64,000 nucleotides of DNA. Origin: Pseudomonadota bacterium (GTDB lineage: Archaea > Thermoplasmatota > SW-10-69-26 > JACQPN01 > JAJPHT01). The stretch covers positions 32,001 to 96,000 of the forward strand of contig JAJPHT010000026.1 in NCBI GenBank assembly GCA_021325135.1. The letters run 5' to 3'. The first letter of the stretch is position 1; every line of letters begins with the position of its first letter. The position numbers and the translations under genes are program-made. Below the pieces are notes generated by a model, which saw only the letters and a list, made by a program, of their open reading frames with translations, made no database searches and was not told the origin of the DNA. Shown here in pieces: positions 33,866 through 55,591 of the stretch.

Positions 33866-35323
33866 ATGGGACGCAAGCAGGAGAACTTCTCCGAGTGGTA
33901 CAACGAGCTGGTCGAGAAGGCCGACCTCATCGACAAGCGCTACCCCATCAAGGGCATGGACGTCTGGAGGCCCTACGGCCTCAGCATCATGCGCGCCATC
34001 GACCGCTACACCCACGAGGAGATGGCCCGCACCAGACACCAGGAGGTGCAGTTCCCCCTCTTCATCCCGCAGACGGAGTTCAACAAGGAGGCCGAGCAGA
34101 TCAAGGGCTTCGGCGGCGAGGTCTACTGGGTGACCAAGGGCGGCAACAACGACCTGGACGTCCCCCTGGTCGTGCGCCCCACCTCCGAGACGGCGATGTA
34201 CCCCATGTTCAGCCTGTGGGTGCGCTCGCACAAGGACCTGCCCCTCAAGGTCTACCAGATCGTCTCCGTGTTCCGCTACGAAACGAAGCAGACGCGCTCG
34301 TTCATCCGCGTGCGCGAGATCCACTTCTTCGAGGCGCACACCGCGCACGACACCTACGAGGACGCCGAACGGCAGATCCACGAGGACGTGCAGATCTGGG
34401 CGCGCCTCGCGGAGAGGCTCTGCCTGCCCTACGTGCTCAGCAAGAGGCCCGACTGGGACAAGTTCCCCGGCGCGCACTACTCGGTGGCCGCGGACGCCAT
34501 GCTCCCCGAGCTCAAGACGCTCCAGGTCGCGACGTTCCACCACTACAAGGACAACTTCGCGAAGGCCTACGACATCAAGTACGAGTCGCAGGACTCCACG
34601 CACGTCTTCGCGCACCAGACGACCTACGGCATGAGCGAGCGCCTGCTGGGCGCCATCATCAGCGTGCACGGCGACGACAAGGGCCTCATGCTGCCCCCCG
34701 CCGTCGCGCCGCACCAGGCCGTCATCGTCCCCATCCTGTTCAAGGGCAAGGAGGCCGGCGTCATGGACGCCGCGCGCCACCTGGCGAACCTCCTCCTCGC
34801 CGCGGGCTTCCGCGTCCACGTGGACGACCGCGAGGAGACGGCGGGCTTCAAGTTCAACGACTGGGAGATGCGCGGCGTGCCCGTCCGCATCGAGCTGGGC
34901 CCCAAGGACGTCGAGAAGGCCCAGTGCGTCATGGTGCGCCGCGACAACGGCCAGAAGAGCTTCGTCGCGCAGGCCGACGCCGCCAAGGGGCTCGCCGAGA
35001 CGCTGGCCTCCTACGCCGACGGCCTCGTGAGCCGGGCGTGGAAGACCATGACCGAGAACGTCCGCGACGTCAAGACCGCCGAGGAGGCCAAGACCGTCTC
35101 CGGCATCGCCCGCGCCGGCTGGTGCGGCAGCGACGAGTGCGGCCAGAAGATCCAGGCCGTCACCGAGAAGACCGTCCTGGGCGTGCCCCTGGACGTGGCC
35201 TTCCCCTCCTTCAAGGAGGAGGCCCACGGCAAGCTCGTCCTCCCGGGCAAGGGCTTCTCGGGCCACTGCGCGGCGTGCGGGAAGGCGACGACGACGCCGG
35301 TGCACATCGCGAAGACGTACTGA
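33866..35323 (+). CDS. proS: Prolyl-tRNA synthetase, archaeal/eukaryotic type
   Basis: FSEWY, RPTSET, WVRSHKDLP, FRYETKQTRSFIRVREI, GDDKGL.LPP, C-terminal Zn site WCG...C..C. Confidence 0.95.
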   Translation: MGRKQENFSEWYNELVEKADLIDKRYPIKGMDVWRPYGLSIMRAIDRYTHEEMARTRHQEVQFPLFIPQTEFNKEAEQIKGFGGEVYWVTKGGNNDLDVPLVVRPTSETAMYPMFSLWVRSHKDLPLKVYQIVSVFRYETKQTRSFIRVREIHFFEAHTAHDTYEDAERQIHEDVQIWARLAERLCLPYVLSKRPDWDKFPGAHYSVAADAMLPELKTLQVATFHHYKDNFAKAYDIKYESQDSTHVFAHQTTYGMSERLLGAIISVHGDDKGLMLPPAVAPHQAVIVPILFKGKEAGVMDAARHLANLLLAAGFRVHVDDREETAGFKFNDWEMRGVPVRIELGPKDVEKAQCVMVRRDNGQKSFVAQADAAKGLAETLASYADGLVSRAWKTMTENVRDVKTAEEAKTVSGIARAGWCGSDECGQKIQAVTEKTVLGVPLDVAFPSFKEEAHGKLVLPGKGFSGHCAACGKATTTPVHIAKTY

Positions 35324-35528
35324 GGCTTCTTGGGGTCGGGCCGACCCCTCCATCTGAAATCCCTCAGCGTAGCCGCTGTTCCGATGGAGTCTCGTTCACC
35401 GGAAGCGCACGATGCATAGACCCACCGGTTCCATCGGAACCAGCCGATGCATATAGCGCACCGGTCGCGGTTTCGACTTATTAGAACGCTTCCGCCGAAA
35501 ATGATATCGCCACCGCGCGCGTAGTAGG

Positions 35529-36148
35529 GGTTGCCTCCTTGGAGGCGCAACGCGCGCAGGCGCCAAGGCCGGACCCGGCGACGGGGCTGGACGAAGCGTC
35601 TGCGGAACGACGCCGGCTCGGCATGCGCCGCCCCGACACGCGATTCGAACGCGGGGACGGGCACACGCGCGCGCCGGCGGGGCAGCCGCAACTCGAGCGA
35701 AGGACTGCCCGCCCCCGTCCGCAAGGGCCCGGGTCCGTTCAACCGCCCCCTCCGGAACCCGCCGGCGAACCACCCCGGCTTCGGAGGAACACGCCACGAA
35801 CCCGCCGAACTGACGGCAGGCCGCGCGTCCGTGTGATGGATCGCGGCCCATCGCAGACCGGCGCTGATCTCAGCGCCCCTGCGACCCCCTCCGACGCGCG
35901 AGCGTCGGGGAGCCCCGGCAAGCATGCACCGTGGAGCCGGGGGCCGGCCGAGGCCTGGCCAGGCCAAGGCGGCGGGACGGGTTCTCCCCGCTCGTAGCCG
36001 AGCGGGGACGACCGGCCAGCCCCACCCCCGTGGGGCCCGCCACCGGACAAGCCTCGTGCCGAGGGAGTCCGGAGCGCCCGCGCCCCGCGCGGGAGGACCG
36101 GTCGGTGGCAGGCGGCTCCGCGTCGCGCCTCCAGGAAGAGCACCTTTT
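35529..36148 (+). ncRNA. Candidate large structured non-coding RNA (~620 nt), family unknown
   Basis: ATGATAT box at 35501; 5' end 35532-35554 pairs with 3' end 36119-36142; more than 12 internal stems; TTTT at 36145-36148; no ORF with host codon bias. Confidence 0.6.
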
Positions 36149-36205
36149 CCGTGCCCACCTGGCCTCGTCGGGGAATAAATACGTGCGAGCCGGTGGTGGA
36201 TCCCC

Positions 36206-37051
36206 GTGCGCGTCCTGCCCTTCGCGCTGCTGGCCTTCCTGGCCGCGGCCCTGGCGCTTCCGAGCCCCTTCGCCCTCTGGGCCCTGAGGCCTGTGCCCGA
36301 TCCGCACCAGGCGTACCTCGACGCCCGGATGCTCGCCTCCGCCGCGCGCGTCGTGGCCGCGATTCTCTTCCTGGCGGGCGCGGTCGCGCTGGCCTTCGCG
36401 GTGCGGCGCGGAGAGGCTGCGCTCCCGCGGGCGCTTCCCGTCCTCGCCCTGGCGAGCCTTGCCCTGGGCGGCGCGCTCCTGAGCCCCTGGGGTTCCAGCC
36501 TCGCGACGGACTCGATCCACGAGCGCTACGAGCGCGGGGGCTTCCTGAAGCCCTACCCGGACGTGGACCTCGCCCGCGGCCCGCTGCCCAACGAGACGTA
36601 CTTCGCCTTCACCGGATCGCGCGAGGTCTCCAACGTGACCGCGCCCATCGACGTGGGGCCCGTCCACGCGCGCCGGGGGGACGTGTGGGACGTCGGGACG
36701 AGGGGCGACGGAGCGGGATGGCCGGGCGACGGTCGCCCCGCGATCTCCAGCGACTTGCCCCTGCGCTGCGTTCCCGGCCCCTTCCTCGACGAGAGGAGCG
36801 ACGCGCGCTCGCCCCTCGTCGTCTCATGGTGGCGCTGCGTCGCGCTCGCCTCCGGCGACGCGAGGGTGCAGGTCTCCCTGCCAGGGCCTGCGCCTGGAAC
36901 CGTCGTCGTGCTCGTGAACGTCCTCCCCAGCCTGGATGCAGCGGTCGCGACCACGCTCGCGCGGTCGGAGGCCCTCCTTGCGCTTGGCGTCGCGGCCGCG
37001 GCGGGCGCGGGCGCGTGGGCCGTGAAGAGGCGCGAATCCCGTCCGCGCTGA
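36206..37051 (+). CDS. Hypothetical membrane protein (281 aa)
   Basis: Three N-terminal TM segments, soluble region, C-terminal TM; AATAAATA box about 30 nt upstream. Confidence 0.6.
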   Translation: MRVLPFALLAFLAAALALPSPFALWALRPVPDPHQAYLDARMLASAARVVAAILFLAGAVALAFAVRRGEAALPRALPVLALASLALGGALLSPWGSSLATDSIHERYERGGFLKPYPDVDLARGPLPNETYFAFTGSREVSNVTAPIDVGPVHARRGDVWDVGTRGDGAGWPGDGRPAISSDLPLRCVPGPFLDERSDARSPLVVSWWRCVALASGDARVQVSLPGPAPGTVVVLVNVLPSLDAAVATTLARSEALLALGVAAAAGAGAWAVKRRESRPR

Positions 37052-37140
37052 AATTACAGATTGGCTAGCGGAGAACGTAACATATTTCGCCACCGCAGGC
37101 GTTCGGCTCGTCGTCCGGAGCATCCGGACAGGGAATTGTT

Positions 37141-37698
37141 GTGCTACCTACGTTGAGATCCAGATCGATCGCTGTCGCGCTCCTCCTCTTTTCGGTCGTC
37201 ACGCTGCCTGCGGTCCAGGCGGACTCCATCGCCTCCCCGGAGCGCGCCCGTCCCCTCGACACGCTCTGCTTCCTGCTTCCCGTCGCGCCGGGCGCGGTGC
37301 AATCGGAGCAGTGGTGCGCGAAGGCGCTGCGCGGGACCCCCCTTGACGAGATCCTGGCCAACGCCCCCGAGCCCTTCGCGTCGAGCCACACCAACGTCAA
37401 CCTCGGCGTGGACTACGAGAACTCGAACCTCGGCGGGGCCTCGTTCACCTGGTGGGGCACCACCGGCTGCACGTCCAGCATCAGCTACATCGGCAACTAT
37501 CCCGCCGAGTGGGTGGACCGGGTCTCGTCGGCCATCGTCGTGTCCGGAAGCGGATGCAACTGGTTCTACCACTTCAACGACAACGACGAGAGCGGCAGCT
37601 ACTACTACTGCGGGCTGACCGTCCACAAGTGCGACCAGGACCAGCTCTACATCCAGGGGTTCGACAACGCGGCCAACTCGATGCGCATCACGGCCTGA
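37141..37698 (+). CDS. Secreted protein with beta/gamma-crystallin-like (Greek key) domain
   Basis: Signal peptide; paired motifs DYENSNLGG...WVDRVSSAIV and FNDNDESG...FDNAANSMRI. Confidence 0.65.
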   Translation: MLPTLRSRSIAVALLLFSVVTLPAVQADSIASPERARPLDTLCFLLPVAPGAVQSEQWCAKALRGTPLDEILANAPEPFASSHTNVNLGVDYENSNLGGASFTWWGTTGCTSSISYIGNYPAEWVDRVSSAIVVSGSGCNWFYHFNDNDESGSYYYCGLTVHKCDQDQLYIQGFDNAANSMRITA

Positions 37699-37710
37699 GC
37701 CCCGCAAGGA

Positions 37711-37736
37711 GGCCCGCTCCGGCGGGCCCCCCTTTT
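37711..37736 (+). terminator. Hairpin plus T-tract terminator
   Basis: GGCCCGC-TCCG-GCGGGCC followed by CCCCTTTT between convergent genes. Confidence 0.6.
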
Positions 37737-37737
37737 G

Positions 37738-38541
37738 CTATCGCTCCTCGCGCCATCGGACAAGCTCCTGCGCGAAGCGCGCCGGCTGCTCCAGCTCGGG
37801 GAAGTGGCCCGCGTCCTCCAGCACGACCACCTTCGCGCGGGGCGCGTGGCGGCGGAGCCCTTGGGGGTCGCTGCCGCGGTGCGTGCGGTCCCTGGCGCCC
37901 CACACGGCCAGCACGGGCAGGTCCGTGGGGGGCGGGGGCGCGGCGCGCTCCAGGGCGCGGAAGGCGGCGGCGAGGGGGAAGCGCGCGCCGTGGTCGAACG
38001 ACTCGACGGCCAGCGCGCCGAAGGCGTCGCCCGCCTCGCGGGTGGGGAGCGCGGCGCGGTACCACGAGCGGGCGATCTCCGGGGCGCGCACGTAGCCCAG
38101 CGCGGGGCCCACGAGGGGCGCGCGCAGCGCGCGGCGCCTGTCGACGCGGTCGATCCACCGCAGCGCGTCGTCCCACGCAGGGGCCTGGAGGGCGACCAGC
38201 GAGTCCACGAGGTCGGGCCGCGCGGCCGCGACGCGCAGCGCGACGTAGGCGCCCACGCAGGGCAGCGCCAGGGTGCACGGCCCCAGGGCGAGCTTGTCCA
38301 GGAGGGCGATGGTCGCCTCCGCCTGCGCGTCGGGGGACTGCCCCGCGCCGCGGGCGGCCTTGGAGTGGCCGAACCCCACGGGCTCGAAGGCGACGACGCG
38401 CGCGTGGGGGCGCAGCGCGACCATGAGGGGGCCGTACTGCTCCAGCACGTTGGGCGGGTCCGTCGCCAGCACGAGCGGAGGCCCCTGGCCCGCCTGCCGC
38501 AGGCGGACGGAGCCCTGGGGGATCGCGACCTGGCGGATCAT
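37738..38541 (-). CDS. Alpha/beta-fold hydrolase with atypical nucleophile elbow (LPCVG)
   Basis: G.GPPLVL, VVAFEPVGFGHS, PVLAVWGARD, DAGHFPELEQP. Confidence 0.8.
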   Translation of the reverse strand: MIRQVAIPQGSVRLRQAGQGPPLVLATDPPNVLEQYGPLMVALRPHARVVAFEPVGFGHSKAARGAGQSPDAQAEATIALLDKLALGPCTLALPCVGAYVALRVAAARPDLVDSLVALQAPAWDDALRWIDRVDRRRALRAPLVGPALGYVRAPEIARSWYRAALPTREAGDAFGALAVESFDHGARFPLAAAFRALERAAPPPPTDLPVLAVWGARDRTHRGSDPQGLRRHAPRAKVVVLEDAGHFPELEQPARFAQELVRWREER

Positions 38542-38954
38542 TGATATCGCGAGACGAGGGCCGCGAGGGCGCGCTTCTGCTCGGGCCACGAGAGGCGCGT
38601 CTCCGCCTCGGCGGCGCTCACCCACTCGGCGCCGGTGTGCTCGTCGCTCAGGGCCTCGGTGACGCCGGGCTCGACGCGCGCCGCGTAGGCCGTCTCGTGA
38701 TAGCGCCCCTTGCGCGGGCCGTCCTTCAGCTCGTAGGTGAAGGTCACGCCCAGGGGCTCGGGGGAGACGTCGAAGCCCGTCTCCTCGTCCACCTCGCGCA
38801 CGGCGGCGTTGAGGAGGCCCTCGTGCGCCTCGACGTTGCCCGTGACGGGGTGCCAGAGCCCCTTCTCGGTCTTCGCGCGCTTCAGGAGCAGGATGCGGAG
38901 GCCGTCGGGCGTCTTGCGGTAGAGGAAGACCTGGACCTTCCGGCGCAGGGGCAT
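38538..38954 (-). CDS. NUDIX hydrolase (NudB/dihydroneopterin triphosphate pyrophosphatase-like)
   Basis: W.PVTGNVE..E....AAVREV.EETG; LS.EH....W. Confidence 0.85.
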   Translation of the reverse strand: MPLRRKVQVFLYRKTPDGLRILLLKRAKTEKGLWHPVTGNVEAHEGLLNAAVREVDEETGFDVSPEPLGVTFTYELKDGPRKGRYHETAYAARVEPGVTEALSDEHTGAEWVSAAEAETRLSWPEQKRALAALVSRYQ

Positions 38955-39074
38955 GGCAACGGCAAGCCTGGCGGGGGGCTTGAAGGTGGCCCTTCGCGGC
39001 CCACGCCCCCGGGCGGCGCGGGCGCCGCTGGAAAAGCCAAGGCATCGTCAAGAGGCAGGGCCCTTCAGGCGCCC

Positions 39075-39206
39075 ATGTATTGCGCAAGATGCGGACGCCC
39101 CTTCGACGACGAGCTGCTGGCGTGCCGCGTCTGCGAGCCCGGGGAGGGGCGCCGCCTCGCGCAGGCGCGCCTGCTCCGCCGGCGCCAGAGCCTCCTGGGC
39201 TGGTAG
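39075..39206 (+). CDS. 43-aa zinc-ribbon microprotein
   Basis: MYCARCG...CRVC; just upstream of cutA on the same strand. Confidence 0.5.
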   Translation: MYCARCGRPFDDELLACRVCEPGEGRRLAQARLLRRRQSLLGW

Positions 39207-39246
39207 GCCGGCAAACCTCCAAGCGCGGAGCCCCCGCTGCGTCGCC

Positions 39247-39564
39247 ATGGACCACGTCTCGGTCTACGTCACGTTCCCCGACGCGGACGTCGCGCGCCGC
39301 GTCTGCCGCGCCCTGGTGGAGGAGCGCCTCGTCGCGTGCGCCAACCTCGCGCCCACCGAGAGCCTGTACGAGTGGGAGGGGCGCCTGGAGGAGGCCCGCG
39401 AGGTGGCGGCCTTCTGCAAGACGCGCGCCGCGCTGGTGGGCCGCGTCGCGGCCCGCGTCAAGGAGCTTCACCCCTACGAGGTGCCCTGCGTCGTGGCGTT
39501 TCCCCTGCTGGGCGGCCACGGGCCCTACCTCGCGTGGATCGACGCGCAGACGCGCTCAGCCTGA
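39247..39564 (+). CDS. cutA: Divalent-cation tolerance protein CutA
   Basis: LVEERLVACAN...SLYEWEG...KT...HPYEVPC. Confidence 0.92.
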   Translation: MDHVSVYVTFPDADVARRVCRALVEERLVACANLAPTESLYEWEGRLEEAREVAAFCKTRAALVGRVAARVKELHPYEVPCVVAFPLLGGHGPYLAWIDAQTRSA

Positions 39565-40185
39565 GCGCACCGGCACGCCGAGGCCCTCCACGATGCGCCG
39601 CGCCCACGCGAGCTTGCGGAGCTTCGCGGCCGCGTCGCGGCCAGGCTTCGGCGCGGGCGTCTCGAAGTCGAACCCCACGAGGCGCAGCGACGCGGCGCCC
39701 ATGGCGACGGCGAGGCACGCGGCGCGGTCGCCGTCGGTGAAGCCGCCGAAGTCGCGCATGCGGCCGCGGGGCTCCGCCTGCGTCGTGCCCAAGACGGGGC
39801 CCAGGAGGCGCGGCACGTGGCGCGCGAGGGCGTCGCGGTTGTCGCCGTGCGCGTGCACGACCAGCGGAACGCCCAGGGCGGAGAGCGCGACCTGCAGCGC
39901 GACGTCGCCGTCCAGGTCCGTCACCACCGCCACGGGCTCGCGCGGCGGGGGTGCCCGGGGGTCTGCCACGAGGAGCGGGCCCTCGGGGACGTTCTCCGCG
40001 GGCGCGCCGCCGAGGATCACCGCCTCGCGGCCCGCAAGCTCCGCGCGGAACGCGTCGAGGTCCACGCAGAGGCGGTCCTCCAGCAGCGCGTCCAGCTCGT
40101 CGCGCGCCGCCTCGTCCGCCGCGCGCGAGAAGCCGAAGTCGGCGAGGATCGCCTCGTAGGTCGGCTCCCAGCGCGCCCAGTCCAT
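39556..40185 (-). CDS. mptE: 6-hydroxymethyl-7,8-dihydropterin pyrophosphokinase (archaeal MptE)
   Basis: W...Y..IL.DFGF...DE.A, VVTDLDG, VHAHGDN, GTTQ, FGGFTDGDRA, KL.WA. Confidence 0.88.
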   Translation of the reverse strand: MDWARWEPTYEAILADFGFSRAADEAARDELDALLEDRLCVDLDAFRAELAGREAVILGGAPAENVPEGPLLVADPRAPPPREPVAVVTDLDGDVALQVALSALGVPLVVHAHGDNRDALARHVPRLLGPVLGTTQAEPRGRMRDFGGFTDGDRAACLAVAMGAASLRLVGFDFETPAPKPGRDAAAKLRKLAWARRIVEGLGVPVRSG

Positions 40186-40247: not shown

Positions 40248-40823
40248 ATGCCCGAGATGTCGCGCGTCGAGCGCCTCCTGGTCAACGGCCCCCTCGTCCG
40301 CATGGCGCACCGCGACGTGGCCGTGCCGCGGCTGCTGCGCCTCGCGCTGGCGCCCCTGGAAGGCCCGCTGCTGGAGGTGGGCTGCGGCGAGGGCGCCACC
40401 ACCGAGGGGCTGCTGGACCGCCTCCCCGGCATCGAGGTCACGGCGCTGGACTTCGATCCCTTCCAGGTGGAGCGCGCCCGGAGGCGCGTCGAGGGCCGCG
40501 CCCTCGTCGTGCAGGGCGACGCCGCTGCGCTGGACTTTCCCGGAGGGTCGTTCGCGACGGTGGTGGAGATGAACGCGTTCCACCACGTGCCCGAGTGGCG
40601 CAAGGCCCAGCGGGAGGCGTTCCGCGTCCTGAGGCCCGGCGGCCAGTTCCTCTTCATGGACTACGCGCGGAGGTTCGCGCGGGGCCTCTTCGCGACGAGC
40701 GCTTTCCAGCCCGGCGCGTTCACGCCCGACGAGTTCGTCCACGGCCTCGCGGACGCGGGCTTCTCCCCGGTGGTGCTGCGCGGCTCGTGGGTGGTCACGG
40801 GCTGCGCCCGACGACCTCGATGA
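40248..40823 (+). CDS. Class I SAM-dependent methyltransferase
   Basis: LLEVGCGEG, QGDAAALDF, HHV..W...E.FRVLRPGG. Confidence 0.85.
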   Translation: MPEMSRVERLLVNGPLVRMAHRDVAVPRLLRLALAPLEGPLLEVGCGEGATTEGLLDRLPGIEVTALDFDPFQVERARRRVEGRALVVQGDAAALDFPGGSFATVVEMNAFHHVPEWRKAQREAFRVLRPGGQFLFMDYARRFARGLFATSAFQPGAFTPDEFVHGLADAGFSPVVLRGSWVVTGCARRPR

Positions 40824-43704
40824 TCCCCTTGCCGTACTTCTCCACCTTCTTGGGCCCCATGCCCTTCACCGCCAGGAGGTCGGACTCGGTGGCGGGCCGC
40901 GCCGCGGCGATGGCGCGCAGCGTCGCGTCGTGCGCGACGACGTAGGCCGGCACGCCCTCCTCGTCCGCCCGCGCCTTGCGCCACGCCTTCAGCGCCGCCA
41001 GCAGCGCGTCGTCCACGTCCGAGGGCTCGGCGCCCGCGGGCGCCTCGCGCTTGGGCGGCGCCTCGACGACCAGGGGCCGCTCGCCGAAGAGGGCGTCGAG
41101 CCCCTTGGGCGTGAGCTTCAGCATCGTGCCGCCGTGCTCCAGCGTCGCGCGCTCGACGTAGCCCATCTCCTCCATGCTGCCGATGAGGGCCTTCACCTTG
41201 CTCTCGCTGCGCAGGCCCAGCGAGCCGCGGGCGGGGAGCTTGTCGGCCCACGGCGGGCTGCGCGCGTCGCCGCGCAGGTGCCAGATGAGGTTGCGCTCGC
41301 CGATCCCGCGGCCCCCGGAGAGCGCGTTGAGGACGTGCCGGCGCGCCTCCTCCTCGGAGCCCGCGCCCTCCTCGGGAAGCTCGTGCGCGACGCCCAGGCA
41401 GTTGTCGCAGCTGCCGCAACGCTCCGGCACCCCCTCCTCGCCGAAGTAGCGGCGCAGGTACCAGTGGCGGCAGCGCGTCGTCTTCACGTAGTCGAGGATC
41501 TCCTTGCCGCGCTGCTCGGCCAGCGCCGCGTAGCGGTCCAGGACCGCGGGCGCGCCCTCCGCGGAGCCCGTGACCTTGTGCAGGATCGCGCGGGGGCCCA
41601 CCTGGAAGAAGAGCGCCCCGTCCGCCTCTTTCGACAGCAGGGTGGGCTCGACCTTCTCGGGGGCGACGCCCAGCGCGCGGGCCGCCTCGAAGAGGCCCAC
41701 CTCGCGGCCCGAGATGGGGAGGTCGCCGCCGTGGACCAGCACGCTGCGCGGCGCGTCGGCGAGGCGGACCGCGGCGCCGGCCTCCGCGAGGATGGAGAGC
41801 GCGACGCGGGGCTTCACGTCGTCCTCGGGGTCGAGCGCCGCCACCTGCGCGGGGTCCAGCAGGCTGTAGCCGTCCTCGCCCGCGCTCGCCAGCAGGAGGC
41901 CCCACGCCTCGTGGACGAGCTTCGCGCTGGGCAGGTCGCCCCGCGCGCGGCTCTTGAGCTGCCCGCCGTCCTGCGCGGTGGCGAGGAGCACGCAGCGCGC
42001 GGGAAGCCCGTCGCGCCCGGCGCGGCCCGACTCCTGCGAGTAGCTCTCGACGCTCTCGGCGGGGTCGGCGTGGAAGACGAAGCGGATGTCCCCCTTGTTG
42101 ATGCCCATGCCGAAGGCGACCGTCGCGACGAGCACGTCGACGCGCCCCTCCATGAACTCCTCCTGGCGGCGCGTCCGGTCGTCGAGCCCCGCGTGGTAGG
42201 GCGCGGCGCGCAGGCCCGCGCGGGAGAGCGCCTCGGCGAGCTGCTCGCACTTGGCGCGGCTGCTGGCGTACACGATGCCGGGGCCCGGCGTCTCGCGGCA
42301 GAGCTGCACGAGGTGCGCGAGCTTGTCGTCCGCGCTTCTGGCGAGGATCGCCTCGTAGCGGAGGTTGGGGCGCGCGGTGCTGGCGCGCACGACGGTCATG
42401 GGGCAGAGGCGGCGCACGATGTCGCGCTCCACGCGCGGGGGCGCCGTCGCGGTGAACGCCGCCACGGGAGGGCTCCCCAGGAGCGTGCGCGCGTCGGCGA
42501 TGCCCAGGTAGTCGGGGCGGAAGTCGTGCCCCCACACCGAGACGCAGTGCGCCTCGTCCACCACCAGGCGGACGACGCCCGCGCGGCGCAGCGCGGCGAG
42601 GAAGGTCGCGTTGCGAAGACGCTCGGGCGCCGCGTAGACGAGGCGGTAGCGCCCCGCCGCGATCTCGTCGAGCGCGCGCCGCGCCTGGGCCTGCGTCAGC
42701 TCGCTGGTGAGCGCGACGCTGGCGGCGCGCATGGGCGCGGGGAGCGAGTCGAGCTGGTCCTTCATGAGCGCGATCAAGGGGCTCACCACCAGCGTGACGC
42801 CGCGCGAGAGCACGGCGGGCAATTGATAGCACAAGCTCTTGCCGCCGCCCGTGGGCATGAGGGCCAGCACGTCCTCGCCGCGCAGGATGCGCGCCAGCAC
42901 CTCGCCCTGCCCCTCGCGGAGGCCCGCATAGCCGAAGTGGCGCCTCACGAGGTCCGCCGCGCGCTGGATCTCCTCCGGCGACACGGCGGGCCCGGAGGAG
43001 ACGGCCTTGGGCGCCGCCTCCTGGCGCGGCGCCGCGGCGGCGCCCACGAGCGCGGCGGCCTCGGCGCGCTGGAGGGAGAGCGCCTCGGCCATGGCCTGCG
43101 CATGGTGCTCCTCGCCCGCGCCCTCGAAGAAGCGGCGCAGCCTCTGGTGATAGCTCGCGGAAAGCGGGCCCTCCTCGTCGCCGCGCGTGTCGAGGAGGCG
43201 CGCCGCGAACGCGCTGCCCGACACCCAGTCGCCCATGGCGCCGCACGCCTCCGCGAGGCCCAGGAGGCCGCGCCTCCTCGTGGGGTGCTCCGCGACGGCG
43301 GCCTCGAAGGCGCGCCGCGCAGGTGCGGCCTCACCGGCCTCCAGCAGCGCCTCGCCCAGGATGACGCGCCGCAGGTAGGGAGCGAGCCCCGGCTGCGCGT
43401 CCAGGAAGGAAGGCACCTCGGCGACGCGGCCCAGGCGCGCGAGGGCGCGGGCGCGCAGGCCGAGGCTCACGCTGGAGGCGCCCTGCGCCTCGCGGCGCTC
43501 CACCGTGGCCAGCGCGCCTGCGGCGTCGCCCGTGTCCAGCTGCGCCTCGGCGAGGAGGTCCAGGGCGAGCAGGCCCGCGCGGGCCGGGTCCACGAGGCGG
43601 ACGACCTCCTCGGGGCGGCCGGCGACGAGGAGCGCGCGCAGGTGGGCGGCCTGCTCGCGGGGCGGGCGGTCCGCGAAGTCCATCGCGAAGCGCAGCGCCC
43701 CCAT
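40795..43704 (-). CDS. recQ: RecQ-family helicase with N-terminal TPR region and C-terminal HRDC domain (alternative start 43683)
   Basis: MPTGGGKSLCYQLP, DEAHC..WGHDFRPDY, QESGRAGRDG, CR....YFGE...CGSCDNC, HRDC LKAWRK.......PAYVV.HDATL. Confidence 0.92.
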   Translation of the reverse strand: MGALRFAMDFADRPPREQAAHLRALLVAGRPEEVVRLVDPARAGLLALDLLAEAQLDTGDAAGALATVERREAQGASSVSLGLRARALARLGRVAEVPSFLDAQPGLAPYLRRVILGEALLEAGEAAPARRAFEAAVAEHPTRRRGLLGLAEACGAMGDWVSGSAFAARLLDTRGDEEGPLSASYHQRLRRFFEGAGEEHHAQAMAEALSLQRAEAAALVGAAAAPRQEAAPKAVSSGPAVSPEEIQRAADLVRRHFGYAGLREGQGEVLARILRGEDVLALMPTGGGKSLCYQLPAVLSRGVTLVVSPLIALMKDQLDSLPAPMRAASVALTSELTQAQARRALDEIAAGRYRLVYAAPERLRNATFLAALRRAGVVRLVVDEAHCVSVWGHDFRPDYLGIADARTLLGSPPVAAFTATAPPRVERDIVRRLCPMTVVRASTARPNLRYEAILARSADDKLAHLVQLCRETPGPGIVYASSRAKCEQLAEALSRAGLRAAPYHAGLDDRTRRQEEFMEGRVDVLVATVAFGMGINKGDIRFVFHADPAESVESYSQESGRAGRDGLPARCVLLATAQDGGQLKSRARGDLPSAKLVHEAWGLLLASAGEDGYSLLDPAQVAALDPEDDVKPRVALSILAEAGAAVRLADAPRSVLVHGGDLPISGREVGLFEAARALGVAPEKVEPTLLSKEADGALFFQVGPRAILHKVTGSAEGAPAVLDRYAALAEQRGKEILDYVKTTRCRHWYLRRYFGEEGVPERCGSCDNCLGVAHELPEEGAGSEEEARRHVLNALSGGRGIGERNLIWHLRGDARSPPWADKLPARGSLGLRSESKVKALIGSMEEMGYVERATLEHGGTMLKLTPKGLDALFGERPLVVEAPPKREAPAGAEPSDVDDALLAALKAWRKARADEEGVPAYVVAHDATLRAIAAARPATESDLLAVKGMGPKKVEKYGKGIIEVVGRSP

Positions 43705-46477: not shown

Positions 46478-47338
46478 GTGCAGCATCCCTGGTTCCCCCG
46501 CGTGCTCCGCGCCCTGCTGCGCATGACGCGCCCCGGCAACGCCCTCGTCGCGGGCGCCGGCGCCTGGGCGGGCTCCCTGCTGGCGGGCGCGTCGCTTCTC
46601 CCGGCTTGGCGCGCGTGGCTCGCGATCCTCGCCTCGGTGGCCTTCGCCGCCGCGGGCAACCTCCGCAACGATGTGCTGGACGTGGAGATCGACCGCGTCG
46701 CGCACCCCGAGAGACCCCTCGTGCGCGGGGAGGCGACGCCGCGGGCGGCCAACGCGCTGGCCATCGCGCTCTACGCGGCCGCGCTGGCGTGCGGCCTCCT
46801 CGTGGGGCTCTGGGCGGGGCTCGTCGTGCTGGTGGCGCTTCCGCTGATGGAAGGGTACGAGCGCACGCTCAAGGCGCGGGGGTTGCCGGGGAACGTCGCC
46901 GTCGCGCTGCTGACGGGGGCTCCCTTCCTGGTGGGCGCGCTGGCCGCAGGGGGCATCCGCGCGCCCGCGCTGGCGGTGGCCGGGCTCGCCGCGCTGGCGA
47001 CGCTGGCGCGGGAGGTGCTCAAGGACGTGGAGGACGTGGACGCGGACCGCCCGCACCGCTGGACGCTCCCCATGCGCGTCGGGGCGCAGAGCGCGTGCGC
47101 GCTCGCGGCCGCGGCCCTCGTCGCGACGACGCTGCTCTCGCCCCTGCCGTGGCTTCAAGGAAACGTTTTAGGGTGGGCCTATGTTCCGGCGGTCGGCCTG
47201 GCCGACCTGGCCTTCCTCGCCGCCGCGTGGACGGGCTTCTCGCGACCGGGCCGCGGACAGCGCCTCGCGAAGGCCGGCATGGTGCTGGCGCTTCTCGCCC
47301 TCGTCGCGGGCCGGGCGCAGGCGGGTGGACTGGCGTGA
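46478..47338 (+). CDS. Digeranylgeranylglyceryl phosphate synthase (UbiA family)
   Basis: RP.N, GN..ND..D.EIDR..HP.RP..RG, LK..G..GN, REVLKDVED..AD; coupled to GGGP synthase. Confidence 0.88.
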   Translation: MQHPWFPRVLRALLRMTRPGNALVAGAGAWAGSLLAGASLLPAWRAWLAILASVAFAAAGNLRNDVLDVEIDRVAHPERPLVRGEATPRAANALAIALYAAALACGLLVGLWAGLVVLVALPLMEGYERTLKARGLPGNVAVALLTGAPFLVGALAAGGIRAPALAVAGLAALATLAREVLKDVEDVDADRPHRWTLPMRVGAQSACALAAAALVATTLLSPLPWLQGNVLGWAYVPAVGLADLAFLAAAWTGFSRPGRGQRLAKAGMVLALLALVAGRAQAGGLA

Positions 47339-48090
47339 GCGGGCGCGTGTGGAAGACCATCCAGGATCGCCTCCAGGGCGGCCCCATCCACATGACGCTC
47401 CTGGACCCGGCCACCTCGCCGGGCCCCGTGGGCGAGAGCATCGCCACCATCGCCGCCAACTACGGCACTGACGCCATCATGGTGGGCGGCTCCACCGACG
47501 TCTCCAGCGACAACCTCGACGAGCTGGTGCTCCACATCAAGGAGAAGACGCGCCTGCCCGTCATCTACTTCCCCAGCACCGCGGGCGCCATGAGCCCCCA
47601 CGTGGACGCCATCTACTTCCTCAGCGTCCTCAACTCCCGCGACCCGCGCATGATCGTGGGCGAGCAGGCCCGCGGCGCGCCGCTCCTGAAGGCGCTGGGC
47701 ACCGAGGCCATCCCCATGGGGTACGTCCTCGTCTCGCCCGGCATGAAGGTGGGCCAGGTGAGCCACGCCGACCTCATCACCCGCGACGCGGCCGGGGCCG
47801 AGCGCGCCGCCAACCTCGCCCTTGCCGCCCAGATGTTCGGCATGAAGCTGGTCTACCTGGAGTGCGGCAGCGGCTCCCCCGAGCCCTGCCCCGTGGAGAT
47901 CGTCCGCGCCGTCCGGCAGGTCCTGGACGTCCCCCTGGTGGTGGGCGGCGGCATCCGCACCGGCGCCCAGGCGGAGGCCCTCCTCGCCGCGGGGGCGGAC
48001 ATCCTGGTCACGGGCACCATCGCCGAGAACCGCCACTTCGACCGCCTGGCCGAGGTCGTGAAGGCCGTCAAGGGCGCCCGCAAGGCCTGA
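47335..48090 (+). CDS. Geranylgeranylglyceryl phosphate synthase (group II)
   Basis: HMTLLDP, GTDAIMVGGS, LSVLNSRDP, GMKLVYLECGSG, VGGGIR, AGAD..VTG. Confidence 0.92.
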   Translation: MSGRVWKTIQDRLQGGPIHMTLLDPATSPGPVGESIATIAANYGTDAIMVGGSTDVSSDNLDELVLHIKEKTRLPVIYFPSTAGAMSPHVDAIYFLSVLNSRDPRMIVGEQARGAPLLKALGTEAIPMGYVLVSPGMKVGQVSHADLITRDAAGAERAANLALAAQMFGMKLVYLECGSGSPEPCPVEIVRAVRQVLDVPLVVGGGIRTGAQAEALLAAGADILVTGTIAENRHFDRLAEVVKAVKGARKA

Positions 48091-48179: not shown

Positions 48180-49820
48180 ATGCGAGCCGCAGCGATGCTG
48201 GTCCTCGTCGTCCTGGCCGTCGTGCCCCTGGCGGCCGCGGCGGCGCAGTTCGGGTCCGACAGCACGCTGGAGGCCAACGACCCCATCCTCCTGGACGGGC
48301 GCGCCGACTCCGCCTACGTCGCGGGCGTCGTGGGCTTCGTCTCCTCCAAGGCGGACACCCCCGTCTCCCTCCATCTCAAGGCCGACGAGGTCGGGCTCAA
48401 CGAGACCACCTACGATCCCGGAAGCTGCCCCTCCGGCACGCCCCTGGCCCAGCCCGCCTGCGTGGGCACGGCCCCCGCCTCAAAGACCGACACGCTGCGC
48501 GACGCCGTGCTCACCGTGGACGCCGCGTCCAGCGCGTACAAGGTGGCCGTCTCCAACAACCGCACCCAGGGCACGCCCTCCGCCAGCTTCGGCGCGCCGG
48601 GCAGCCTCGTCGCCACCACGGGCCCCTCCAGCGTGCTGGGCACCAACGCCGCGGCGGACCACCTCTCCCCCTACGAGGCGGACTGGTCCGGCAGCACCGC
48701 GCGCGCCCCCGGCGAGCCCTTCTACGCCGCGGACCCCGACGCGCCCAAGCTCTCCACCACCAGCGGCGGCTCCGTGAGCGCGGGGCAGGGCCTCCGCGTG
48801 CTCCTCCAAGGCGTCAAGGTCCACGTCACGGGCACCTCGGCCGCGGGCCAGCGCGTGGACGAGACGCTGGACCTCGCCTCCTCCGACTCCAAGGTCCACT
48901 TCCTCGTGGTCGACGCCAGCGGCGCGGACCTCGCCGCGCAGAGCAGCGCGCCCTTCACGGGCTACGGCCTCGCCATCGCGGACGTGCACGGCTCGGCGCA
49001 GCTCACCAAGGTCTCTGGCCACGCCACCGTGGACGGCCACCCCGTGGACTACAACACCAACAGCGACGCCGTCCTCCCCGGCCCCATCTCGCTTGGCATC
49101 GTGAAGGTCAAGCCCGGCGACACGGCGCGCATCGTCTTCACCCTCAGCAGCACGCTGCGCGTGATCGCGCCCCACCCCGACGCCACGCGCCAGAACACTG
49201 CTGCGCTCGTCGCCGCGGGCGCGGGCGGCGCGGCGGGCGCCGGCCTCCTGGCGGGCCTGATCTACTTCTGGCCCCGCCTGCGCTTCGCGCTCACGGCGCT
49301 CATGCTCCCCCTCTACAGCCGCATCGAGCGCACCGAGGTCCTGGAGCACACGAAGCGCGACGAGATCTACGAGCTCATCCGCGCGACGCCGGGCATCCAC
49401 GCCCACGAGATCGGCGAGAAGGCCCTCATCGGCTGGGGCACCACGGTCTACCACCTCAAGCTCCTGGAGAGCCACGGCCTCGTCGTGTCCAAGAAGAGCG
49501 GCCGCTACAAGCGCTTCTTCGTGAACACCGGCGAGTACACCAAGAAGAAGGACGTGTACGGCGCGCTGCGCAACGAGACCGCCAAGCGCGTCGCCGAGTT
49601 CATCGTCGAGCACCCCGGCAGCAGCCAGAAGGAGCTGTGCGCCGCCGTGGGCATCCAGCCCTCGCTGGCCTCGTGGCACGTCGAGAAGCTGGAGGGCGTC
49701 GGCCTCGTGAAGCGCGTGAAGGACGGCCGCCAGGTGCGCTACTTCGCGGGCCCCGCCTGGGGCGACCTCAACGTGCAGGTGACGCCCTCAGGCGGCGCGG
49801 ACACGCCGGCGGAGACGTAG
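48180..49820 (+). CDS. Membrane-anchored regulator: signal peptide, ~320-aa extracellular domain, TM, tandem cytoplasmic wHTH
   Basis: MRAAAMLVLVVLAVVPLAAAA; TM GLLAGLIYFW; PLYSRI...KRDEIYELIRATPGI...TTVYHL..L; second wHTH ...SLASWHVEKL; CTTATAT box about 30 nt upstream. Confidence 0.88.
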   Translation: MRAAAMLVLVVLAVVPLAAAAAQFGSDSTLEANDPILLDGRADSAYVAGVVGFVSSKADTPVSLHLKADEVGLNETTYDPGSCPSGTPLAQPACVGTAPASKTDTLRDAVLTVDAASSAYKVAVSNNRTQGTPSASFGAPGSLVATTGPSSVLGTNAAADHLSPYEADWSGSTARAPGEPFYAADPDAPKLSTTSGGSVSAGQGLRVLLQGVKVHVTGTSAAGQRVDETLDLASSDSKVHFLVVDASGADLAAQSSAPFTGYGLAIADVHGSAQLTKVSGHATVDGHPVDYNTNSDAVLPGPISLGIVKVKPGDTARIVFTLSSTLRVIAPHPDATRQNTAALVAAGAGGAAGAGLLAGLIYFWPRLRFALTALMLPLYSRIERTEVLEHTKRDEIYELIRATPGIHAHEIGEKALIGWGTTVYHLKLLESHGLVVSKKSGRYKRFFVNTGEYTKKKDVYGALRNETAKRVAEFIVEHPGSSQKELCAAVGIQPSLASWHVEKLEGVGLVKRVKDGRQVRYFAGPAWGDLNVQVTPSGGADTPAET

Positions 49821-49898
49821 CGCCGGGAGCAGCCCGGGACATCGCCTCGGCTGCGCCCCCGCCACGTTGAATCCAGGAGCGCCGCATCCGCGCCTCGC

Positions 49899-50081
49899 AT
49901 GCGCGCCACCCTCCTCCTCGTCGCCCTCCTCGCCGCCACCGCCCTGGCGCCCCTCGCCGCGGCGGACATCGTGATCGAGTTCCCCTTCTGCGGCCCCGAC
50001 GGGCCCCAGGACTGCGGCTGCCACGACGTGACGGTGCCCTTCCCCAAGGAGATCGACCCCGTCCACTGCCAGTGGGTCTGA
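49899..50081 (+). CDS. Secreted 4-Cys micropeptide, paralog 1 (60 aa)
   Basis: Signal peptide then DIVIEFPFC-x7-CGC-x15-C. Confidence 0.75.
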   Translation: MRATLLLVALLAATALAPLAAADIVIEFPFCGPDGPQDCGCHDVTVPFPKEIDPVHCQWV

Positions 50082-50089
50082 GCCGCGCC

Positions 50090-50272
50090 TCAGCGCACGA
50101 AGTTCTCGCGGTGCTTCGAGCGCCGCGTCTGCGCGTCCGCCCTCGGGGGGCGCGGCTCCAGCCATCCGGCCTCGCTGCCCACCACCGACTCGTCGCGCTC
50201 CTTGAGCACGCGCATGCGGAACTCGCGCATCGCCTCGTTGGACGTCACGGCGGGGTTCTTGCGGCCAGACAT
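50090..50272 (-). CDS. Small basic cytoplasmic hypothetical protein (60 aa)
   Basis: MSGRKNPAVTSNEAMREFRMR...; purine-rich SD-like stretch upstream. Confidence 0.45.
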   Translation of the reverse strand: MSGRKNPAVTSNEAMREFRMRVLKERDESVVGSEAGWLEPRPPRADAQTRRSKHRENFVR

Positions 50273-50420
50273 GCCGCTTCCCTTGGCGGCACGGGCAGAT
50301 GAACCGCGCGCCCTTTCCGAGCCCCCGATTGACTCGGCGCGGCGCGCCCGCACCGATTCGAGCAGCGCGCAGGATGCAGGGGCGGAACCGCGATTCGCCG
50401 CGCGCTGCGTGGGGAGCCCC

Positions 50421-50609
50421 ATGGCCCGCGCCATCCTGCTCGCCATGCTGATCCTGGCCATCCCGCTCACCACCGCGACCCTCGCGGCGGCGGACGTCAA
50501 CGCCAGCGTGCCCGTGTGCGACGGCGAGGGCCACTGCAAGTGCCAGCGCATCCACGTCTCCGAGCCCGTCGCTCTCGCCGACCCCACGAACTGCAACTTC
50601 TCCGGGTGA
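50421..50609 (+). CDS. Secreted 4-Cys micropeptide, paralog 2 (62 aa)
   Basis: Signal peptide then DVNASVPVC-x5-CKC-x16-C; GGGGAG SD. Confidence 0.75.
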   Translation: MARAILLAMLILAIPLTTATLAAADVNASVPVCDGEGHCKCQRIHVSEPVALADPTNCNFSG

Positions 50610-50615
50610 TCCCTG

Positions 50616-50798
50616 ATGTCCCGCGTCCTGCTCCTCGTCGCCCTCTGCGCCTTCGCCGCCGTCGCCCTCGCCCCCGCCGCCTCGGCGGACGTCACCGTGG
50701 GCGTCCCCGTCTGCAACGTCAAGAGCAACATCTGCGTCTGCGTGGTCGAGCACGTCCCCGCGCCCGTGGACGAGCGCGCCGGCTGCCCGCCCTTCTGA
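50616..50798 (+). CDS. Secreted 4-Cys micropeptide, paralog 3 (60 aa)
   Basis: Signal peptide then DVTVGVPVC-x6-CVC-x14-C; GGTGA SD overlaps the upstream stop. Confidence 0.78.
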   Translation: MSRVLLLVALCAFAAVALAPAASADVTVGVPVCNVKSNICVCVVEHVPAPVDERAGCPPF

Positions 50799-51227
50799 TC
50801 AGCGGAAGTCGCCAATGCCCCAGAAGGGGCCCACGGTGGCGGCGCCCACGTCCTTGCCGTCGGTCCAGTACGGGACGTAGTGCCCGTTGTTGTAGAGGTA
50901 GAGCTTGCACGTCCCGTCGGGGTACGTCTGCACCAGGGCGGCCTGCCCCAGCTTGGGCGCGTAGAGGGGCTTGCCCGCGGCGCAGCCCACGAACGCGCTG
51001 GGCAGGTCCACGGTCCACTCGCCCGAGCCGCCGCCCAGCGCGAGCGTGCCCGACTCGGTGGTGTGCGCCACGGTGACCTCGCCAAGGCCCAGGTCGGGCG
51101 GCGGGGTGACGTTGGGCAGGGTCCACGTCCACGTCCCCGTGAGGGCGCTGGTGGACGCGTTGGCGGGCGATCCCGCGACGGCCAGGGCCGCGCCGAAGAG
51201 AAGCAGGGCTGGTACCAGGATGCGCAA
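50799..51227 (-). CDS. Secreted beta-rich hypothetical protein (alternative start 51269)
   Basis: TTG after GGGAGGGG SD; signal peptide RILVPALLLFGAALAVAGSPANA; 2 Cys. Confidence 0.6.
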   Translation of the reverse strand: MRILVPALLLFGAALAVAGSPANASTSALTGTWTWTLPNVTPPPDLGLGEVTVAHTTESGTLALGGGSGEWTVDLPSAFVGCAAGKPLYAPKLGQAALVQTYPDGTCKLYLYNNGHYVPYWTDGKDVGAATVGPFWGIGDFR

Positions 51228-51313
51228 GCGCGTTTCCCCTCCCGCAGCGGGAAGGGTGCGCGCCGGCATTCCCCTTCGCGTGTCCCCTTGGCGACGACAC
51301 GTCTCGCGAGACC

Positions 51314-51961
51314 CTATGCGCCCACCGAGGGGACGCCGAGGCCGGGCAGCGCCTGGGAGAGGCCGTTGAGGATGAACTGCACCGCGACGGCCGCCAGGAG
51401 CAGGCCCATGACGCGGGTGAAGACCTGGAGGCCGCTGCGGCCCATGAAGCGGAAGAGGCGCTCGCCCGCGATGAGGAGGACCACCGCGATGGCGAAGGTC
51501 ACGAGGACGGCGCCGTAGATGACCGCGCGGTCCAGCCCCTCGGGGTGGCTCGCGACGAGGATCATCACGGTGGTGATGGCGCCGGGGCCCGTGAGCAGCG
51601 GCACGCCCAGGGGCGTGATGCCGATGCTCTCGCGCTCCAGGGCGTCGGCGATCTCCTGGTCGTTGCTGTCGGCCTTGGGGCGCTCGCCCTGGAGCATGTC
51701 GAAGGCGACCTTGAAGATCAGGATGCCCCCCGCGATGCGGAAGGCGGGGATGGTGATGCTGAACACGGCGAAGATGACCTGCCCCGCGAGCCCGAAGAGG
51801 ATGAGCAGCCCCGCGCCCACGAGGACGGCCTTGGCGATGACGCGGCGCCGCATGGCGGCGTCGTAGCCCCCGGTGAGGGCGAGGAAGGTGGGGATGACGC
51901 CGATGGGGTTGACGATGGCGAAGATGCTCACCTGGATCGCCAGGAGCGTCGCCCAGTCCAC
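51314..51961 (-). CDS. MarC-family membrane protein
   Basis: FAIVNPIG.IP.F, FRIAGG, PLGVPLLTGPGAIT, RVMGLLLAAVAVQFI. Confidence 0.9.
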   Translation of the reverse strand: MDWATLLAIQVSIFAIVNPIGVIPTFLALTGGYDAAMRRRVIAKAVLVGAGLLILFGLAGQVIFAVFSITIPAFRIAGGILIFKVAFDMLQGERPKADSNDQEIADALERESIGITPLGVPLLTGPGAITTVMILVASHPEGLDRAVIYGAVLVTFAIAVVLLIAGERLFRFMGRSGLQVFTRVMGLLLAAVAVQFILNGLSQALPGLGVPSVGA

Positions 51962-55256: not shown

Positions 55257-55299
55257 AAAAGACCGGCGGCCGATCAAGGCCGCCGTGACGTCTCTTTTT
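55257..55299. terminator. Probable bidirectional terminator between convergent genes
   Basis: AAAAGA..CGGCGGCC-GATCAA-GGCCGCCG..TCTCTTTTT. Confidence 0.6.
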
Positions 55300-55591
55300 A
55301 GGCCGCCAGGATCGGGTACGTCGTGCTGTAGCACGGGTGGCCGCCGATCTCGTGGTCGACGACGGCGCAGATGACGCCGTCGTAGTAGATCAGCTCGCCG
55401 TCGACGTAGTTGATGGTGGGCTGGGCGACGACGATGATGCCCTGCGCGGTGTCGTAGACGGCGCACTCGCCGCGGTGGACGGCGTCGGGCTGGGTGCGGT
55501 CGCAGATGCTCACGGAGCCCTGCGCGGACGCCAGGGGAAGGGCGGCGAGCACGAGCAGCAGCGAGGCGGCGAGGGGGACGATGGTCTTCAT
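55298..55591 (-). CDS. Small secreted 4-Cys protein (97 aa)
   Basis: Signal peptide MKTIVPLAASLLLVLAALPLASA; GGAGG SD. Confidence 0.7.
   Translation of the reverse strand: MKTIVPLAASLLLVLAALPLASAQGSVSICDRTQPDAVHRGECAVYDTAQGIIVVAQPTINYVDGELIYYDGVICAVVDHEIGGHPCYSTTYPILAA

Follow-up and report, generated by a model that had tools for sequence, protein, structure and literature searches.

Candidate secreted four-cysteine peptides beside a membrane-tethered regulator in an uncultured soil archaeon

The peptide genes and their family

The window analyzed in this study, 64,000 nucleotides long, lies on contig C49 of a metagenome-assembled genome (3.77 Mb, 71.6% GC, 94% complete) of an uncultured member of the Thermoplasmatota, and contains three short genes, p1, p2 and p3, for predicted secreted peptides with four cysteines, downstream of a gene for a membrane-tethered transcription regulator on the same strand (Table 1). 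Below, G000 is this genome and other G numbers are genomes of relatives; L numbers are other loci, P numbers homologous peptides, and C numbers contigs of G000. The sequence run that matched best in Logan is a soil metagenome; Logan contigs were identical to 49352-51388 with 0 mismatches (the run is possibly the source), and short identical pieces were found in a second study. The GC profile is flat, with no sign of a foreign island. Genes and signal peptides were called with a self-trained gene finder and our own heuristic signal-peptide rule.

The precursors of p1, p2 and p3 are 60, 62 and 60 amino acids (aa) long, and each consists of a hydrophobic leader ending in A-x-A and a mature part that starts with Asp. 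The mature parts share one cysteine frame, with Cys9, loops of 7, 5 and 6 residues, C-x-C, x4-V-x-x-P and a last Cys; the four cysteines align in a frame of the two-disulfide type, C-x(5-7)-C-x-C-x(14-16)-C. A preliminary description of this DNA had proposed three reading frames of this kind, a shared Cys/Val/Pro motif with variable loops, and mature lengths of 37-38 aa. The genes are where it placed them, coding and conserved, and the motif holds in all three; the length is right for p1 and p2 (38 and 38) but not for p3 (36). Codon scores (0.47-0.55 per codon) equal those of housekeeping genes, and orthologues in two Joint Genome Institute (JGI) metagenomes are 72-80% identical, with a pooled ratio of nonsynonymous to synonymous substitution rates (dN/dS) of 0.40 (p 2e-5). 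Purifying selection acts on the three peptides, which are true paralogues. A hidden Markov model (HMM) built from the mature parts alone of seven distant homologues ranked p2, p3 and p1 first to third among 47,677 six-frame open reading frames (ORFs) of the genome (E-values 1e-6, 3e-5 and 8e-3), and the paralogy is thus independent of the signal peptides; leave-one-out models from the other two peptides were weak (E 0.17 at best).

None of the three matched Pfam, NCBIfam, PADLOC or PDB sequences, and by their sequences they are assigned to a new four-cysteine family, probably Sec-type secreted and disulfide-bonded. An AlphaFold model of p2 contains a beta-hairpin at residues 26-33 and 39-46 with low confidence (predicted local distance difference test, pLDDT, 64; predicted template modelling score, pTM, 0.28); Foldseek with this peptide model gave no match at E 0.001, and ESM Atlas returned nothing usable for p2. 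The p3 gene starts 6 bp after p2, in a tandem order also seen in L055, and the two are probably co-transcribed.

Database searches gave 13 family proteins: p1-p3, one orthologue of each, and seven more with identities of about 30-50%. A fourteenth, divergent copy lies in tandem after P0011 (L068:1851-2036). The four cysteines are invariant across the family; His is present in most members, yet not invariant. Apart from the members directly downstream of the regulator, two occur in its neighbourhood, in L070 after AzlD and in L056 after a membrane protein that follows the regulator in G002. Five members occur at other loci; the sites that family members follow include an M29 peptidase, a NUDIX gene and a DUF1905 region. 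Weak family-HMM matches in relatives reflect mostly signal-peptide similarity to other cysteine peptides, and the family was not found in four same-genus genomes (86-99% complete) that carry the regulator.

Genes for prolyl-tRNA synthetase (ProRS), NUDIX, CutA and MptE (window 33866-40185) flank family members in L065 and L068, and the same genes lie 8-14 kb from the regulator in the window; the family may therefore hop locally within one chromosomal region. In L056, the p1 orthologue and the antisense gene are separated by an inserted 6-Cys peptide of another kind (1239-1472). This insertion and the tandem copy in L068 are consistent with turnover in a hot spot.

Table 1. Features around the peptide genes (window coordinates)
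Feature	Position	Strand	Remarks
DGGGPS-like UbiA prenyltransferase and geranylgeranylglyceryl phosphate (GGGP) synthase	46478..48090	+	archaeal lipid synthesis; conserved 5' neighbours of the regulator
Transmembrane transcription regulator	48180..49820	+	signal peptide, ~315-aa ectodomain, one transmembrane (TM) segment, tandem winged helix-turn-helix (wHTH) domains (HVO_0163-type)
Putative p1 promoter	49848..49873	+	GGCTGCGC box and core like a transcription factor B (TFB) recognition element (BRE)/TATA; -51 from ATG; 6th best score of 83 peptide genes
p1, predicted secreted 4-Cys peptide	49899..50081	+	22-aa signal, 38-aa mature; net charge -6; orthologue P0005 80% identical, dN/dS 0.48
60-aa basic cytoplasmic protein, conserved	50090..50272	-	dN/dS 0.31; homologues in G002, G003 (partial), G004, L056, L069
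Putative p2-p3 promoter	50371..50396	+	weaker copy, GGATGCAG; -50 from ATG; orthologue has GGCTGCGT
p2, predicted secreted 4-Cys peptide	50421..50609	+	38-aa mature; net charge -3; orthologue P0004 79% identical, dN/dS 0.32
p3, predicted secreted 4-Cys peptide	50616..50798	+	36-aa mature; net charge -2; orthologue P0006 72% identical
Convergent secreted 142-aa 2-Cys protein	50799..51227	-	plausible; not found beside p2/p3 orthologues (replaced there)

A genome-wide repertoire with a shared promoter box

The genome encodes 158 secreted proteins of at most 130 aa, and 113 of them carry four or more cysteines among 3,788 genes in total (3%). Cysteine counts span 2, 4, 6, 8, 10 and 12 and are even in 124 cases and odd in 9 (p 3e-27), a parity that small non-secreted proteins do not show. 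The peptides fall into 79 loci (17 with several peptides) and about 95 sequence clusters; they are rich in Pro, Val, Gly and Cys, poor in Lys (0.9%), and 97% neutral or anionic, and the larger secreted proteins of the genome are likewise anionic. A Tat-like (twin-arginine translocation) motif was found in 0 of the 113. Sampled stretches of G002, G001 and G010 contain 58, 24 and 55 such peptides per Mb, and none was found in 80-175 kb samples of G007, G009, G015, G017, G023 and G054; the trait is therefore patchy within the class. The locus is one of about 79 cysteine-peptide loci, a point absent from the preliminary description, and p1-p3 are best regarded as one small, locally duplicated family within this repertoire of about 113 peptides.

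The sequences upstream of the peptide genes point to common control. TGCGC was enriched there (48/99 vs 425/2567), and expectation-maximization (EM) produced the motif CGGCTGCGC-N3-CGCAAGGCT-AT, which lies either at -62 to -58 or near -51 relative to the start codon. In three-fold cross-validation 18 of 69 held-out sequences exceeded the 95th percentile of the background (vs 5%, p 6e-9), and the motif likelihood was 188, compared with 75-112 for random sets. The right half of the motif is a general BRE/TATA-like core, found before about 1,040 other genes. The left half, the GGCTGCGC box 10 nt upstream of the core promoter, is a defined 8-bp element specific to peptide genes (19/50 vs 7/1038 when anchored on the core, a comparison that is partly circular as the motif was trained on the same set). 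The box recurs in G002 (6/12 vs 1/115, some of these genes being possibly orthologues). It is kept at -49 to -51 in L055, L056, L069 and L070, with the p1 version at the same offset in the last three. Peptides paired 5' of regulators lack the box (0/5 vs 41/78, p 0.03); its presence before p1 and p2 places p1-p3 among the globally controlled peptides and not among the regulator-paired ones.

The strict box pattern was not enriched before the class of other secreted proteins with two or more cysteines (2/96, p 0.32). A TGCG..CGCA dyad was set aside, its right half being the general core promoter of the genome, and a scan for sigma-70 promoters and terminators, with models unsuited to archaea, gave nothing. 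Archaeal activators act at sites just upstream of the BRE, and the genome contains three TFB paralogues. ArnR boxes have been placed at -43 to -84 (PMC6396743).

Several other members of the repertoire were observed. Larger tandem arrays of 3-5 paralogous peptides with 4-10 cysteines occur at C7:53405-54376, C15:218835-220593, C39:81168-82618, C40:183882-185397, C8:62293-63110 and C42:19242-20973. A secreted family of about 100 aa with the motif W/Y-x-E-x-N-G-x-x-G-L-Q recurs at C5:39356, C6:50666, C15:134049, C19:46856, C24:99857 and C48:21135 and in L099 of G002; it is conserved between genomes, and some copies adjoin wHTH regulators. A further secreted protein with four cysteines, 97 aa long, is encoded in the window at 55298-55591 (minus strand); it belongs to a different family and has neither promoter box nor NCBIfam match. 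Membrane proteins of the CcdA/DsbD type and exported redoxins are present (C2:56629-58399, C44:42053-42538, C50:9992-10675), as is a DsbA-like protein that has no signal peptide (C8:19582).

The adjacent regulator and its neighbourhood

The preliminary description read the upstream gene as an extracellular domain, one TM segment and two wHTH domains. This architecture is borne out, with a signal peptide, a beta-rich ectodomain with one Cys pair, a TM segment at about 343-361 (a heuristic call, as it is weakly hydrophobic, with a peak hydropathy of 1.8, and Gly/Ala-rich), and matches above cut-off to PF24266 (391-450) and HTH_24/MarR_2 (465-517). PADLOC returned only generic wHTH matches for it. 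With a predicted DNA-binding domain and at least one TM region, the protein may be classed as a transmembrane transcription regulator (TTR). It shares with ToxR/CadC and the archaeal ArnR/ArnR1 (PMC6396743) a DNA-binding domain and TM segment in one chain, a single pass and a putative external sensor. It differs in its N-out/C-in orientation, signal peptide and tandem C-terminal HVO_0163-type domains, a topology that is the inverse of that of ArnR and ToxR; in ArnR the HTH is N-terminal and two TM segments lie at the C-terminus. The wHTH domain of ToxR is N-terminal as well. The genome has 54 PF24266 matches, about 30 of them in membrane-tethered tandem-wHTH regulators, whereas in the survey of Demey et al. 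(2023, PMC10269533) an archaeal genome had 4 +/- 2 TTRs.

The regulator is a single-copy lineage among these roughly 30 paralogues, with orthologues across the order, in which the ectodomain diverges faster (38-65% identity) than the wHTH part (80-90%). The ectodomain model (pLDDT 48; best VIA Z 3.9) was uninformative, and so was its co-folding with p1 (score 0.00, the fold of the partner being uncertain). The lipid-synthesis genes on its 5' side (GGGP synthase above its cut-off, UbiA below the equivalog cut-off) are syntenic in G001, G002, G003, G004 and L193. While GGGP synthase remains constant, almost every orthologous locus has another gene on the 3' side of the regulator: AzlC, a membrane protein, cytochrome bd, acyl-CoA dehydrogenase, phosphoribosyl pyrophosphate (PRPP) synthetase or a homologue of the antisense ORF. 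A family peptide lies directly downstream in 2 of 9 close orthologous loci (this one and GCA_035553695.1) and in 0 of 5 more distant ones; the orthologue closest by C-terminal identity (L190, 90%) has no peptide downstream. The positional association of peptides and regulator is real but dispensable, and it is best explained by descent in an insertion hot spot.

Across the genome, TM-wHTH regulators adjoin cysteine peptides in 7 of 29 cases (this locus excluded; vs 4.3%, p 2e-4), more weakly in G002 (4/28 vs 6.8%, p 0.15). Certain clades, in which the peptides lie 5' of the regulator, account for this signal, and in a tree of the wHTH domains only, rooted at the midpoint, the window regulator is a separate lineage outside them. 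Linkage between such regulators and cysteine peptides, which the preliminary description had named as a check, exists in this genome as a whole but is not conserved among the orthologues of this regulator. The suggestion that the peptides are ligands in a dedicated module was not supported here, with members at unrelated loci and the few linked orthologues given above; as regulated outputs they fit in the general sense of a shared upstream box, not as such a module. The locus is a real feature with a new peptide family, and is probably not a dedicated signalling module.

An accessory or immunity role had also been suggested for 50090-50272 and 50799-51227. It was rejected on synteny, since the former occurs without the peptides and the peptides occur without the latter. 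To judge from its conservation, the antisense ORF 50090-50272 is a real gene; it tracks the regulator neighbourhood, and in G002 and G003 its homologues adjoin the regulator although no peptides are present there. The 142-aa gene is probably unrelated to the peptides, being replaced beside the p2/p3 orthologues; ESM Atlas gave only unnamed clusters for its product.

Possible roles of the peptides

We have moderate confidence that p1-p3 are co-regulated secreted effectors in microbial interactions, a reading drawn from sequence features. Sec export and cleavage by signal peptidase I after A-x-A would free a peptide of 36-38 aa, in which two disulfides, as the cysteine parity suggests, may lock a beta-hairpin with variable loops, the hairpin being that of the low-confidence model. 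p1 and p2-p3 would be transcribed from their own promoters and would share with dozens of other peptide genes a factor that turns them on, either an activator or a member of the TFB trio, which may bind the GGCTGCGC motif just upstream of the BRE. Outside the cell, and this is the least secure step, the peptides might act as diversified binding effectors against or on other microbes, like microhalocins or the defensin and nodule-specific cysteine-rich (NCR) repertoires. The regulator would be an older resident tied to the lipid-synthesis genes, and its 3' side a hot spot for insertions, taken up in some lineages by the peptide family.

Known systems offer partial likenesses. Microhalocins and halocin C8 (PMC11509114) are archaeal, secreted, smaller than 10 kDa and non-cationic, as are the mature p1-p3. 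The precursor of halocin C8 is a Tat-exported protein of 283 aa, from which the immunity protein HalI is released as well (PMC11509114), whereas the precursors of p1-p3 are short and Sec-type, with no pro-region, Tat motif or immunity gene. The halocin C8 domain (TIGR04449) was not matched in the peptides or the genome, although the Haloferax positive control was. Given the non-cationic nature of microhalocins (PMC11509114), antagonism is compatible with a negative charge. Eukaryotic repertoires such as plant cysteine-rich peptides (CRPs), NCR peptides and defensins (PMC7230169, PMC5557327) resemble the repertoire in their many short genes, signal peptides, fixed even cysteine frames, variable loops and tandem arrays; the repertoire differs in its lack of sequence homology, its archaeal host, its anionic and not typically cationic character, and its many unrelated cysteine frames. 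No defensin or NCR profile or cysteine frame was matched by p1-p3 in Pfam or PDB sequences.

Several observations weigh against the effector reading. No immunity gene was identified, though an anti-archaeal toxin would need one, and with dN/dS below 1 there is no diversifying selection. The motif was not seen before the few peptides of G001 (0/4) and G010 (0/6), and P0008-P0011 and P0016 likewise showed none. A search of the genome, which is 94% complete, gave no DsbB or VKOR oxidase. The census itself relies on our heuristic gene and signal-peptide caller. Finally, the family occurs in the regulator neighbourhood in 3-4 lineages (G000, L069, L070 and probably L056), which is above chance, although common ancestry accounts for it.

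The peptides could instead be structural subunits of a surface or matrix. As amphipathic beta-hairpins controlled by a single developmental switch, they would assemble on the surface of the cell or where air and water meet in soil. Chaplins and hydrophobins are similarly small, secreted, disulfide-bearing, hydrophobic, paralogous and co-regulated. The residue composition and charge of the repertoire and the alternating Val pattern ahead of Cys1 favour such a coat, and the shared regulon and purifying selection are consistent with it. This explanation is nevertheless unlikely: about 95 unrelated clusters with rapid gain and loss, a far greater sequence diversity than that of chaplins and hydrophobins, exceed the needs of a coat, no Pfam match to either was obtained at E 0.1, and p1-p3 have four cysteines instead of the 8-Cys frame.

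The two readings that give the adjacent regulator a part are weaker. It is quite unlikely that p1-p3 are its cognate ligands, pheromones recognized by the ectodomain in a peptide-signalling circuit. The orthologue in GCA_035553695.1 (84% over the C-terminal 180 aa) directly precedes a family peptide, another member follows AzlD in the same neighbourhood, TM-wHTH genes are enriched beside cysteine peptides, and the ectodomain is the fast-diverging part; but 7 of 9 close orthologues, including L190, have no downstream peptide, the four same-genus genomes have the regulator and not the family, the regulator stands outside the peptide-pairing clades, and the global box, absent from 5'-paired peptides, is present before p1 and p2. 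The conserved linkage expected of a cognate peptide-receptor pair was not found, and the regulator is probably not the receptor of p1-p3. Still more doubtful is a role as master activator of the GGCTGCGC box, with p1-p3 and many other peptide genes as outputs, not ligands. Its single copy, its conservation across the order with a very conserved wHTH pair, and a p1 box among the best of the genome would suit this role, and ArnR is a precedent for an archaeal activator in the membrane that works through boxes upstream of surface genes (PMC6396743). Equally good candidates, however, are some 50 tandem-wHTH paralogues and three TFBs, and the regulator is present in G007, G009, G015 and G017, whose samples of 135-175 kb contain no such peptides. 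Extracellular binding of Cu or Zn through Cys/His ligands is most improbable: C-x-C, acidic residues, the frequent His and the missing DsbB/VKOR would suit it, but strict even parity over 2-12 cysteines suits disulfides, His is not invariant, and no metal transport or resistance genes were found among the neighbouring genes.

Plants, fungi and animals are the organisms with which large sets of secreted disulfide peptides are associated, and the characterized archaeal peptides are few, being single halocins. The literature searched, which covered few subscription papers, contained no account of a repertoire of this kind in archaea. An uncultured soil archaeon with about 3% of its genes for such peptides, a shared promoter element and some 30 tethered regulators points to an unstudied extracellular biology. 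A tentative and rather doubtful extension is that the lineage evolved a eukaryote-style extracellular peptide system of more than 100 disulfide miniproteins, part of them an effector arsenal under a common promoter switch (including p1-p3) and part paired one-to-one with about 30 single-chain DNA-binding membrane receptors. If true, no large repertoire of peptide ligands and receptors would have been known in archaea before it.

For peptide-regulator pairs, the co-oriented couples on C33, C39 and C42 and the head-to-head ones on C21, C23, C30 and C40 are better targets than this locus. In the former, each regulator of one TM-wHTH clade is preceded on its own strand, at a distance of 16-39 nt, by a 4-Cys peptide (C33:72757-74596, C39:70242-72013, C42:14039-15805); these couples are the best candidates for cognate pairs. 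In the latter, TM-wHTH clades stand head-to-head with variable Cys-rich secreted genes across gaps of about 105-210 bp, in G000 (C21:11090-13098, C40:224910-226796, C30:42466-47255, C23:97996-99606) and in G002 (L160, L167, L173). Elsewhere in the window, 40795-43704 (minus strand) encodes a RecQ-like helicase with a long N-terminal extension that, read by eye, resembles tetratricopeptide repeats (TPR).

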